Shown here piece after piece: positions 26,085 to 38,451 of a stretch of DNA of 64,000 bases (position 1 is the stretch's first letter; the number at the start of each line of letters is the position of its first letter). The notes below the pieces were generated by a model. That model searched no databases. It worked only from the letters and a program-made list of their open reading frames with translations, and was not told the origin of the DNA. The stretch comes from Hormiphora californensis (taxonomy: Eukaryota; Animalia; Ctenophora). Location: positions 2,170,001-2,234,000 of the forward strand of contig CM035360.1 of assembly GCA_020137815.1 (NCBI GenBank), read 5' to 3'. Made by a program: the position numbers and the translations under genes.

Positions 26085-29000
26085 TCAACCAGTACTGCTT
26101 CCACCAGGATTATTAGCAGGATGCCCCTCCATGTTGTAATACAGGAAGGACTGTTTTGAGAGTCGCTTCTTTAGTTGAAGGTGTTTCTTGACAAAGTTCA
26201 ACACTGCGGTCTGTTCAGCCAGCCTGAATGGTGGATTTGGGGTCAGGGTGGATTTGGGGGTGGGTGGAGTTGGGGTCAGGGTGAATTTGGGGTGGGGTGG
26301 ATTTGGGGTAAGGGTGGATTTGGGGTTAGGGTGGATTTGGGAGAGGGGTGGATTTGGGGGAGGGGTGGATTTGTGGGAGGGGTGGATTTGGGGGTGAGTG
26401 GATTTGGGGTCAGGGTGGATTTGGGATCAGTGTGGATTTGGGGGAGGGGTGGATTTGGGGGAGGGGTGGATTTGTGGGAGGGGTGGATTTGGGGGTGAGT
26501 GGATTTGGGGTCAGGGTGGATTTGGGATCAGTGTGGATTTGGGGTCAGGGTGGATTTAAGGGTGTGTAGAAATTGTAATTTGGTGGGACATCACTACAAA
26601 ATGAAAATGAAAACACCCTAGTTATAGTTTTATAGTCGGTGGATTATGGCTATGATGTCCTAGCCTGGTTTCAACAAAACAAGACGTATCGTATCCCAAT
26701 CCCATTAAAACTTACTTCAAAACTTCAAGAAGATCGGTGAATGTTACAAGTTTGCTCTCAGCCGTCCATATTCGAATTAGCTCAGCAGTCGGACTCTCTA
26801 GCGATCTGAGAAAGTATGAGTTTTTTAAATTCGGGATATCCCCCGATAGTACTATAGTTAGTTCCACTAAACATGATGTTATTATTCCGATTCATCATGC
26901 ACTATCAAAAGATATTAGTGCACTCACTCTTCAATTTCCCTCATTCTGTGGCCCATTCCCAGGAGGGGCACTATCTTCCTCCAGGCGCACTCCGGTGCCT
27001 GGTCCAGCATCTTACAGATGTGCTTGTGGAGGCCCCGGGGTATGTTGTGGACATCCACATCTGACACAGAGTTCGGCACAGTCTTCTGAAACATGATAAT
27101 GTTAGGAATCTGTCTGGATAGAGATTATTATTATTCATGGAAATCTTTACTCAGCTCTTTTTCATAATACTAATTAAGGAGCTGAGTAAAGATTTTCATT
27201 ATGATTTATGATACAGGCTGAGAGGATTTAGACTTTTCATGCCGGGCCTCAATTTCACTAAATCAGCTGAACTTAGCTGTTTAAAAGAGGATTTAATTTT
27301 AGGAAGGTTATCTGCCTGATAGGTGTGCTTGTTAAGATTCAGGTGACTTTATACTCTATGTGTGGTTTAATGAAGCTACACTTCATTTCTAATCTCAATA
27401 TGCTACACAGCGGAGTAGCGGCCACCAAAAATGCTCGATCGTGGGAGCAAGAGCAGATCACTTCATGACGAGGTGCTTTTAGAATTAATGAATAGCTCTA
27501 ATGCGTATATATCTAGTTACGTTGATGGACACAGGAACAACAAGAGGAGTGATAGTAGTTGCATTGTCCTTTTTAACAGCCGTACTAGCACGTCTACGGG
27601 TCTGTTGTATAGGTGTACTGCTACCCTGATTACTGATCTCACTGTCTCCTCCGTGATCTGCATTACTGTCACCCTCCTAGTCAATTATTTTTATTGAGAC
27701 GCGTGGTATGATGGTATTACTGTCAGCCTCCTAGTTAATTATTTTAATTGAGACACGTGGTATGATGACCATGGGCCACTTTATTTAGTTCTGCTCATTT
27801 GGAAACGACAACGGCCTTATTGTCTATAAATCATGGTTTAATTACAATCAGTGATGTACCTCAGATATATTTTGTAGTGGGCGAATGAACCTCTTCTGCC
27901 TCAACTTCTCCAACCTCTCCTCCTCCACCTCCAAGCTCTGTTCAAGTTCATGGATCGCTTTCCGGACCATTTGGAGTTTATCCAGAGTCTTAGTTGCTTT
28001 CTCCTCTGACACCACGGAGAGGTCGAGGGAGCTCTGGGAGTGGGTCCGTTCGTAACGCCGTAACGCCTCGTCCTTTTCGTGCTGAAACGAGAGAACGAGA
28101 GATAATATTAATCCTGTTATATTAATCATGTGACATGTAACATACCATTAAATTTTAATTAATTAATTAATTTAAAACTAAACATGATTTGCACCTACAT
28201 TGGAGGCGGCAATATCCATGGTATTTTGGAGCTGCACTGCCTCATTCCTCCCAACGTCCACCATGTCATAGTGGTATGTTAACTCCTCCTCCGCACTGTT
28301 TCCCAGTACTGACAGACCCCGGGACATCTGGAGAGGGGTCAGAGGGATCAGTGTTAGTAAACAAGCAGAATGGTAGTAAATCTGGTAAATCTGGGGAGAG
28401 GTTGAGTGTGCTAGTAAAACGGGTAGAGCTGCTGAGCTGTTAGTTCATGTGAGGAGGGGGAGCAGTTCATCCTTTTTATTAGTCATCCTAAATCCTAATT
28501 ACTTTAATTAGTTCATCCTAATTAGGTACCTTAATTAGTTTATCCTAATTACCTTAATTAGTTCATCTTTAACAGCATTCCAGGTTGAGTAGTCTTGTTT
28601 TACAGCAGCAACACAGCTCCCCTCTCCCAACTCTGCCTTCATAATTCGAAGCGATGCTGCCATCTCCTTCACCTATTTAGGAATCATGATTATAATGGAT
28701 CGAAACAAGTGAACAACCAATCAGAACTCGTTATTTAGGTCACGTGACTGATTATCAGCCAATCAGGGACCAGTATTTCCTGATTCGGTCGAACGACCTA
28801 TCGGTTCTTGGAATCATGATTATAATGGATCGACTGCGGACTGCTTGAGCCTCTGTGAGAGCATTGGCATGGCCTGACCCTATTCTCATTTCTTTTGCGC
28901 GAGAACTGTGGTCAGAGAATTGGCCTGACAGTTGAGCCTTGTTGGCCGCCTTGTTCGACACTTTCATAATGCGGTCCTTTGTATTTTACATCTACCAGTT

Positions 29001-38000: not shown

Positions 38001-38451
38001 TAAGAAGCCTTATAGTGTCATACGTTGGCAATTACAAATTTAGCAGGGTGTAAATAGAAAAGAAATGGATGTAAACTGTACATACCTTGCTGAAAAGGGC
38101 AAAACAGTCCCGAGTAAGGGTTATCTGGGGTAACTTGAGATAACGACATAGGATACATATCTTGTCCTGATAAACCGTACCAGAGGCAGGGAGTGTCACC
38201 AGACAACCAATTCCTGATAAATTGTTTAAATTTTTTGTGCATTTAGAGTTTAGACAAAAACAAGTTTGTGAATTTAAACACGGTTAAAAAACCAATTTTA
38301 TCAATAACAAACCAATTATTGTTGATTTCGTGCCAGTAGCATTAGCCTTTTTACGGATCTGACAGAGACTCTGTGATAACTCTGGGTCCTTCATTGTCTT
38401 CTCAAAATCATCACAGCTATTATAGTCAGAGTTGGTATCTCTAAATAGCAT
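26085..38451 (-). CDS. Multi-exon gene: degenerate trypsin-like domain, ARM-like helices, coiled coil and C-terminal Death domain (may be two genes; junction at 34.9-37.3 kb unresolved)
   Basis: Phase-compatible GT-AG exons 26928-27085, 26716-26805 and 26085-26223 give DVHNIPRGLHKHICKMLDQAPECAWRKIVPLLGM...SPTAELIRIW...TFTDLLEVLKLAEQTAVLNFV (Death fold). Coiled-coil exons lie at 27.9-30.1 kb and helical exons at 30.6-31.05 and 34.76-34.89 kb. Exons at 37.3-38.45 kb give GIGCLV, LKPDRFLESCPKLGFTLVA and DTLKLSSGGAMFS...LLGI. Confidence 0.7.
26230..26565. repeat. G-rich 18-bp minisatellite (GGGTGGATTTGGGGTCAG-like)
   Basis: Tandem units in the last intron of the Death-domain gene; G-quadruplex-prone. 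Confidence 0.9.
29048..29672. repeat. 44-bp minisatellite containing a minus-strand exon end and splice donor
   Basis: Unit ACCAGATCATAACAACCCTCAAGAGAAGGTGGCTCTC(A/T)GTACTT, interrupted by a 100-bp insert at 29391-29490. Confidence 0.92.
31407..33287 (-). CDS. Intronless 626-aa protein with two OTU-like domains and an acidic repeat tail, nested in an intron
   Basis: Domain 2: PNNGNGNCSIESV ... GDLMILGI ... LVLAYDGAHYESL (Cys and His present). Domain 1: DKDGNIFF ... AAHCLGRPIVVF ... PICLGFDGATYHPL (Cys and His lost). Tail repeats EQGTEGV and GKVLEGIESEN. Confidence 0.8.
   Translation of the reverse strand: MILPDKDGNIFFEHRSVTAAKSFGISTKVGHQFSRAANNNRFIDAVVRFVNHYSGGGTQRKLALSSNYYKIIWSNIAETIARGNPDLYPGQYDEAVWKNSWAEIRSTGACFIPFFDRFIKLAAAHCLGRPIVVFGATESHTNGVSVFLATGLSGGEEPREVPICLGFDGATYHPLLPKSSTDLEKVVEIVAMWSLGVTDVELVRESIKELHGDDEIAEMLPCENRKPLGEMVTKRPILGARPCLKRRQPDVSTIPESDENSEERTFTTVKRFRIIEENIDSGSSSSSLFLSPKSAVVTHPLMKQGIELARKYYINLKPGRPNNGNGNCSIESVIDQINNRTCFQESFPRSVQFYRDIWMSETERQARNSAFFLDLYTEDEWRDAWIRLRGDGQYELDYFGDLMILGIMHCVGKNALVFNVSEYRSHGPITVVRGDYFGGSLSDDQPPLVLAYDGAHYESLMPVGEGDVRKTRYIVEQWSRFDGADMWSHLSGLHWFTEGVEQGTEGVEQGTEGVEQGTEGVEQGTEKLAGEKVLEGIESENGKVLEGIESENGKVLEGIESENGKKEEGMKDENGKVGEGIESENGKEEEGMKDDKVKTEIISDVDISSQDDNCSVQLSESKENGA
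34335..34735. repeat. Two short intronic minisatellites (CAAAACAAGGGGTAAACAA; AATGTTGGTCACTTTGTCACATTG)
   Basis: Direct tandem units at ~34335-34460 and ~34620-34735. Confidence 0.85.
36605..36885. repeat. Tandem repeat (CCTGAGGAGAGATATTTCATAGTTTAGAATAGCTAGGGG with a variable insert)
   Basis: Five to six direct units. Confidence 0.85.

Follow-up and report, generated by a model that had tools for sequence, protein, structure and literature searches.

Trypsin-like domains coupled to death-fold domains have been reported in two settings. A trypsin joined to a Death domain is described in Nematostella (Babonis et al. 2019, PMC6767649; 10.1101/645952), and in bacteria death-like domains are reported as fused to trypsins in predicted conflict systems (Kaur et al. 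2021, PMC8195603). In bacterial NucA-trypsin systems, trypsins in the effector position are described as nearly all inactive and have been interpreted as peptide binders or dominant negatives (Kaur et al. 2020, PMC7159879). A works-like model for a scaffold is offered by CARD9 and CARD11, which combine a death-fold domain with a long coiled coil, are autoinhibited and nucleate a partner filament; in CARD9, death-fold nucleation is gated by the coiled coil (PMC6624267). Death-domain matches have also been reported in ctenophore genomes (PMC4979521). In this study, we analyzed a stretch of 64,000 nucleotides (nts) from the ctenophore Hormiphora californensis (assembly GCA_020137815.1, contig CM035360.1, positions 2,170,001 to 2,234,000 of the forward strand; hereafter the window, whose own numbering is used throughout). 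On its minus strand lies a multi-exon gene, here called the host gene, whose product is predicted to start with a trypsin-like pseudoprotease domain and carries a Death domain at its C-terminus, with weakly ARM-like helices and a likely coiled coil in between. Its longest intron harbors a second, intronless open reading frame (ORF) predicted to encode two OTU domains.

The closest described protein is the product of Bolinopsis microptera LOC134820953, which has the same length, the same order of parts and 55% identity, but differs by a Ser-to-Ala change at the nucleophile position; Pfam recognizes only its Death domain. The Nematostella pairing likewise unites an intracellular-clade trypsin domain and a Death domain in a non-bilaterian, although the available text of that report mentions neither ARM repeats nor a coiled coil, and the likeness is one of description only. 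The bacterial systems share the fusion of death-like and trypsin-like domains, and the two best BLAST matches of the host protein among 79 bacterial references are Trypsin_2 plus Endonuclease_NS proteins; however, those systems are operon-based, and the host protein contains no nuclease. In CARD9 and CARD11 the CARD is N-terminal, whereas the Death domain of the host protein is C-terminal, and no sequence relationship with them was found. The host protein may share an ARM head with SARM1, but the Pfam scan of the Bolinopsis ortholog, on which the next two comparisons also draw, shows neither SAM nor TIR; it differs from MyD88, IRAK and Tube, in which an N-terminal Death domain is combined with TIR or a kinase, since its own Death domain is C-terminal and accompanied by neither; and it shows a weak death-domain likeness to MALT1 and IRAK3 but has no Ig, caspase-like or kinase domain. 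An earlier reading of this DNA from its letters (the sequence-only reading) did not recognize the combination. A literature search that left subscription journals mostly outside its coverage found no paper on this gene, by identifier, or on its architecture, while the trypsin-plus-Death pair has the precedents given above. The host gene is uncharacterized, with an architecture that is unusual but partly precedented.

An 18-exon gene conserved between two comb-jelly orders

The gene model comprises 18 exons between 38394 and 26086, its reading frame is open for 797 codons, and all 17 introns have GT-AG borders. The phase-compatible exons and motifs of the sequence-only reading were located on the minus strand where it had placed them; exon 6, which is 60% identical to the ortholog, had been missed. 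When 54 amino acids (aa) of exon 3 (37982-37821) were used as a query, one protein among eight candidates was retrieved, namely isoform X2 of Bolinopsis LOC134820953 (776 aa, E 2.8e-14, 70% identity). Its cluster has three members: X2 (XP_063687693.1), X1 (XP_063687692.1) and a 204-aa C-terminal piece. Isoform X1, a protein of 797 aa annotated as uncharacterized, is collinear with the window from 38394 to about 26127 and identical to our model at 424 of 773 aligned positions (55% end to end), with 59% identity in the trypsin-like, 50% in the ARM-like, 52% in the coiled-coil and 69% in the Death region. Bolinopsis is lobate, so the ortholog sits in another ctenophore order. A search with the first Death exon against 1.84 billion representatives returned a single match, a 264-aa gene model of Pleurobrachia bachei (P0017), which is identical to the window model at 117 of 118 positions across the Death region; by sequence, the window thus fits a Pleurobrachia-like cydippid. 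The exon 3 and full-length matches with Bolinopsis are far beyond chance and, judged by sequence, the 18-exon locus is real and conserved between two comb-jelly orders. It had been called hidden, which holds for the ORF track only, as the ortholog is already annotated in RefSeq. All named matches in the exon 3 and Death exon searches were ctenophore proteins, in agreement with the lineage-specific range that had been proposed, and these searches revealed no paralogue. Restriction of the gene to ctenophores is nevertheless provisional, because sequence searches would overlook distant proteins with the same architecture.

The trypsin-like identity proposed for the upstream exons gained support. 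In Atlas, ortholog residues 1-225 (own model) fell among Trypsin_2/Trypsin clusters with a feature score of 0.95 and TM values of 0.67-0.70 (10 rows). For a profile comparison, 120 bacterial loci were collected by a trypsin motif pattern and 79 domains of at least 170 aa were kept; both of the two that were checked with Pfam proved to be Trypsin_2 plus Endonuclease_NS. HHalign of the two ctenophore sequences against these 79 domains gave a probability of 86.6% (E 5e-7; best of 20 shuffles, 0.82%), and a bacterial trypsin profile scored 6.9 bits on the window domain compared to 2.7 bits for the best of 500 shuffles; the reference set being motif-picked and bacterial only, with no eukaryotic trypsin clade, these values speak for fold and register, not for descent or gene transfer. 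A trypsin-like fold is thereby predicted for the N-terminal domain.

In the HHalign register, the His column falls on Leu53 (with Tyr52 adjacent), the Asp column on Gly89, the oxyanion Gly column on Leu163 and the Ser column on Ser165, where Bolinopsis has Ala167. His and Asp are thus missing in both species, the oxyanion Gly is replaced in both, and Ser is missing in one of the two. Given this loss of the triad, the domain is predicted to be catalytically dead, a pseudoprotease. The case is stronger than the sequence-only reading had argued from the replaced His and Asp, although the serine that it described as kept is present in the window and not conserved in Bolinopsis. That a dead domain is still 59% conserved fits a retained binding role.

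At the other end of the protein, the Death domain family PF00531 was matched in the ortholog with 37.9 bits (E 2e-9) and in the Pleurobrachia model with 33.8 bits (E 3.8e-8), both above the gathering cut-off of 22.6 bits, in line with the C-terminal Death domain that had been proposed. Between the two ends, the helical region weakly suggests ARM-like repeats; its Atlas neighbors include KAP, ARMC3, Vac8 and inscuteable clusters, all below the naming bar. Residues ~400-665 are predicted as long helices in a single-sequence AlphaFold model of the ortholog (mean pLDDT 39), NCBIfam gave weak SMC matches only, and heptads appear in a few windows; a segmented coiled coil is likely here. Foldseek with this low-confidence model yielded no matches at E 0.001, and a PDB sequence search with the ortholog yielded nothing under E 0.028. 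The highest 19-residue hydropathy values are 1.66 and 1.87, with no transmembrane-like segment, which suggests that the host protein is cytosolic.

Additional features were observed along the locus. The frame of exon 1 is open in the 5' direction up to an acceptor-like site at 38440, and a short N-terminal extension is possible. Intronic minisatellites next to exon edges form stacks of decoy splice sites: 41/57-nt arrays at 36645-36883 hold four extra copies of the exon 6 acceptor, a 44-nt array at 29048-29673 holds about twelve copies of the exon 12 donor, and a 17-nt array at 26230-26557 adjoins the last acceptor. The 44-nt array is broken by a stretch of ~100 nts (29390-29490) that resembles, in inverted orientation, sequence near 25030-25140 and may be a small mobile element. 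No Rfam family was matched within 24000-42000, and tblastn against plasmids gave chance matches only.

A tandem-OTU frame in intron 7

Intron 7, the longest of the host gene (3,708 nts), contains the largest open frame in the 26085-38451 span, which was absent from the sequence-only reading. Residues are numbered here by the 629-aa stop-to-stop frame (33296-31410). The two halves of the ORF resemble each other (27% identity over 181 aa, E 2e-23). Its relatives form five clusters of unnamed proteins of 514-673 aa with 40-45% identity, none from NCBI. A model built from six sequences (pLDDT 65.7) matched OTUD3 by Foldseek (E 1.4e-4); residues 307-467 aligned with OTUD3 (Z 11.8, root-mean-square deviation 3.1, 133 aligned) and residues 1-180 with OTUD1 (Z 10.2, root-mean-square deviation 3.8, 143 aligned), whereas the best PDB sequence match of the profile was OTUD7B (E 7.6e-4). 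With regard to subfamily, sequence therefore favors OTUD7B and structure favors OTUD3/Otu2 by ~2 Z units. Pfam OTU was weakly matched in two of the five relatives (E 0.016 and 0.087), and a Pfam scan for zinc fingers in the ORF found none. Both halves are predicted to adopt OTU folds.

The second domain has Cys and His in the window and in all five relatives and is predicted, from these residues, to be an active deubiquitinase. The first domain lacks both in the window and in four of the five relatives. P0001, an ENA protein, is the sole relative with Cys and His in both domains. In a tree of the 12 halves, which is midpoint-rooted and has long branches, the five dead N-halves grouped together (100/100) and the intact N-half of P0001 fell among the C-halves. 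The OTU fold in both halves is shared with the known OTU deubiquitinases (Cezanne/OTUD7B, A20 and OTUD3), but the ORF consists of two tandem OTU domains, the first of them without Cys and His. Tandem OTU domains are reportedly present in LotA of Legionella. A eukaryotic dead-plus-live tandem was not described in any paper found by a literature search that mostly did not reach subscription journals. The acidic tail of the ORF arises from coding tandem repeats (21 and 33 nts; 31504-31799, minus strand); the acidic tails of the relatives are unrelated to it.

How the ORF is expressed was considered with splice-site scores from a crude matrix trained on the 17 introns of the host gene itself. An acceptor at 33296 (score 9.9) lies 9 nts before the OTU ATG, and in one relative (L001) the ATG is likewise preceded at close range by an acceptor-like site (score 7.6); these positions suit a 5' non-coding exon or a trans-spliced leader. 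The Hormiphora genome is reported to contain 2,357 nested genes, many of them parallel to their host, and leaders were reported on at least 56% of long reads (PMC8527503). Because the strong acceptor is out of phase with the host, L001 has a comparable site, and nested genes and leaders are abundant in Hormiphora, the ORF is most likely a separate, same-strand nested gene, across which the host would normally splice. The stand-alone form of the relatives adds little to this, as gene callers may ignore introns. The two best donor-like sites in intron 7 (score 8.1 each; 34479-34483, minus strand) lie ~1.2 kb upstream of the OTU acceptor and are a candidate end of a 5' non-coding exon. Among JGI metagenomes, one locus of the ORF family (1954 nts) was obtained from 145 pattern matches. 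A viral gene was considered and rejected (0 of 101 pattern matches in viral contigs confirmed), as was a transposon (among the 25 longest of 84 inverted pairs, no terminal repeats beyond the GA/UC tracts described below).

The ORF is bracketed on the pre-mRNA by a (GA)n tract and a downstream (UC)n tract, which are 81-97% complementary over 70-122 nts (duplex energy -185 kcal/mol). The 64 kb contain only eight GA/UC tracts of at least 40 nts, and none lies within 1 kb of the window's three other long intronless ORFs. In zebrafish, introns bridged by complementary dinucleotide repeats have been reported (PMC4691745), and pairing of this kind might loop the nested gene out. Against this idea, the (GA)n tract forms an even stronger duplex with another, longer (UC)n tract located in intron 6 (-223 kcal/mol), a pairing that would loop out exon 7 instead, and the bracketing is a single, after-the-fact case.

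Table 1. Window coordinates of host gene exons, the nested ORF and associated elements
Feature	Position	Strand	Remarks
Exon 1	38313..38394	-	Starts at ATG 38394; ortholog begins at aligned Met
Exon 2	38086..38213	-	Trypsin-like domain; His position = Leu53 (Tyr52 with a one-residue register slip)
Exon 3	37817..37982	-	Trypsin-like domain; Asp position = Gly89
Exon 4	37546..37654	-	Trypsin-like domain
Exon 5	37295..37407	-	Ser165 at nucleophile position (Ala in Bolinopsis); Leu163 at oxyanion-hole Gly position
Possible alternative stop exon	37112..37137	-	Named in the sequence-only reading; would yield 208 aa; ortholog gives no support
Exon 6	36511..36645	-	Helical ARM-like region begins
Exon 7	34760..34888	-	ARM-like
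(GA)n tract on pre-mRNA	33386..33509		~90 nts upstream of OTU acceptor
Nested intronless ORF	31407..33287	-	626 aa: predicted dead OTU, linker, OTU with Cys331/His459, acidic repeat tail
(UC)n tract on pre-mRNA	31243..31340		~65 nts downstream of OTU stop; complementary to (GA)n tract
Exon 8	30920..31051	-	ARM-like
Exon 9	30640..30783	-	ARM-like
Exon 10	30327..30472	-	Helix entering coiled coil
Exon 11	29957..30091	-	Predicted coiled coil
Exon 12	29656..29772	-	Predicted coiled coil
Exon 13	28553..28672	-	Predicted coiled coil
Exon 14	28199..28327	-	Predicted coiled coil; invariant 10-residue block (aa 570-579)
Exon 15	27860..28081	-	Final predicted coiled-coil segment
Exon 16	26928..27085	-	Linker and first half of Death domain
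Exon 17	26716..26805	-	Death domain
Exon 18	26086..26223	-	Death domain end, invariant basic 15-residue block (aa 766-780), then stop codon

Other genes were recognized elsewhere in the window. On the plus strand, a long kinase frame at 2687-3493 (Pfam Pkinase, E 2e-42) presumably resembles Mos, and a 374-aa frame at 18998-20122 with an N-terminal coiled coil and no significant Pfam match is taken by us to resemble centrosomal kizuna. The multi-exon AAA gene at about 7000-16400 on the minus strand (Pfam AAA, E 0.003 on one exon) presumably resembles replication factor C subunit 1. A plus-strand kinase exon at 42082-42528 has an altered DFG motif (Pfam Pkinase, E 3.8e-12); our guess is a ULK4-like pseudokinase. 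An intronless rhodopsin-family G-protein-coupled receptor at 55159-56235 on the minus strand (Pfam 7tm_1, E 3.2e-23) may be a nested gene too, and the metallo-beta-lactamase-fold exons at 58164-58791 on the plus strand, with a weak tRNase Z match, probably encode RNase Z.

Competing readings and a proposed role

It had been cautioned that the exon ending at 37295 could splice to 37137 and stop, which would divide the locus into a stand-alone 208-aa pseudoprotease, with its end at 37112, and a second gene for the ARM, coiled-coil and Death parts. The acceptor at 37137 does score 10.4 and lead to an in-frame stop, and the database models of Pleurobrachia (264 aa) and one of Bolinopsis (204 aa) are C-terminal pieces only. 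However, the ortholog is continuous and runs on through exon 6, none of the three members of its cluster is a short N-terminal form, neither AATAAA nor ATTAAA was found within 450 nts after the alternative stop, and intronic sites scoring at least 9.5 are common (10 in 9,559 bases, including four tandem repeats of the exon 6 acceptor). The 21 aa that set Bolinopsis isoform X1 apart from X2 stop exactly where exons 5 and 6 of the window model meet; therefore, the Bolinopsis annotation (RefSeq models) has a splice junction there. Because a collinear 797-aa ortholog exists in another ctenophore order, we treat the locus as one gene and regard a division into two as very improbable, while a minor short isoform ending at 37112 is possible. 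We consider it just as improbable that the N-terminal domain is an active, non-canonical protease in which Ser165 works with a different base: this residue and both of its flanking residues fit the family motif in the window, but Bolinopsis has Ala at that position, and neither species retains His, Asp or the oxyanion Gly. It is also unlikely that the OTU frame serves as a large cassette exon, giving a pseudoprotease-ARM-OTU-OTU-ARM-coiled coil-Death isoform of 1413 aa with its own deubiquitinase. With 33274 as acceptor and 31427 as donor, the frame would stay open for 1413 codons, and this donor scores 6.1, within the range of true donors (-0.1 to 11.6); the acceptor, in contrast, scores 2.4, with only two of the 17 true acceptors lower, and the strong acceptor at 33296 is out of phase with host exon 7 and leads to a stop within 16 codons. 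Moreover, the insert would interrupt the helical repeats and is present in neither Bolinopsis isoform, and a search of proteins of 1179-3365 aa gave 0 of 4377 candidates (weak evidence, with lengths of 1102-1178 outside the search).

As for function, we propose that the host protein is a non-enzymatic signaling scaffold, a reading to which we give about an even chance. In this picture, a head made of the dead protease and the helical repeats would bind an input peptide or partner. Oligomerization would be the task of the coiled coil, and the death domains, once clustered, would bring in another death-domain protein. Oligomerization and recruitment are suggested because of the analogy with CARD9-type scaffolds, and the binding head because of the inactive bacterial trypsin effectors; we infer ligand binding, oligomerization, death-domain recruitment and an immune or cell-death output from family knowledge only. 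Instead, the same protein could serve as an adaptor with a structural or trafficking task (at cilia, centrosomes or motors), in which case its death domain would be a common docking module that plays no part in immunity or cell death. Ankyrins and UNC5 employ death domains outside immunity, the Atlas neighbors KAP, ARMC3, Vac8 and inscuteable point the same way, and so do the steady conservation of 50-69% and the absence of a paralogue from our searches; yet all of those neighbors are below the naming bar, the nearest solved death domains, though weak, are signaling ones, and the bacterial trypsin-plus-death pairings sit in predicted conflict systems. We hold this adaptor to be possible, but with distinctly less confidence than the scaffold.

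A number of observations weigh against the signaling scaffold and its predicted parts. Even conservation along the chain and the lack of a detected paralogue fit a housekeeping adaptor equally well as an immune sensor, and no partner, ligand or phenotype is on record for the host protein. Pfam trypsin families (PF13365/PF00089) had no match at E up to 1 in the ortholog or in four trypsin-region frames, and the full-length ortholog model has a mean pLDDT of only 39. The ARM-like helices proposed by the sequence-only reading stand as an Atlas lead only (feature score 0.81; TM 0.57-0.70 to ARM/HEAT clusters, with 10 of 10 structure rows below the naming bar), the Pfam ARM family giving no match in the ortholog at E up to 1. 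Its long coiled coil is moderately supported, by the long-helix model and the weak SMC matches, while a heptad scan flagged just two windows in this region of our model and four in the ortholog. The IRAK/MyD88/UNC5 style that it assigned to the Death domain is weakly reflected: among solved chains, IRAK3 (E 0.034) and MALT1 (E 0.2-0.3) come nearest, but neither match is significant, and the likeness does not suffice for assigning a subtype. In addition, Mnemiopsis is reported to be without canonical Toll-like receptors (TLR) and MyD88 (PMC11797021), which leaves the downstream partner without an obvious candidate.

A more speculative proposal, which we think rather unlikely to hold as a whole, would connect these elements: ctenophores, without MyD88 and canonical TLRs, may have built their own death-domain signalosome on a pseudoprotease scaffold, the nested tandem OTU may act as a dedicated ubiquitin eraser, co-regulated or as a cassette exon, and GA/UC pairing may set the nested gene apart in a loop of the host pre-mRNA, which would explain how it is skipped.

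If the host protein is a housekeeping adaptor, the value of the finding shrinks to an annotation gain. Otherwise, the locus provides a conserved candidate scaffold with an N-terminal fold that Pfam cannot see and that domain censuses would overlook. With the nested ORF, a small family without a name emerges in which a predicted dead and a predicted live OTU domain stand in tandem. How a host manages to skip a nested gene on its own strand is a question that has been raised for Hormiphora (PMC8527503), and the complementary repeats on the flanks of the ORF suggest a possible answer that can be tested.

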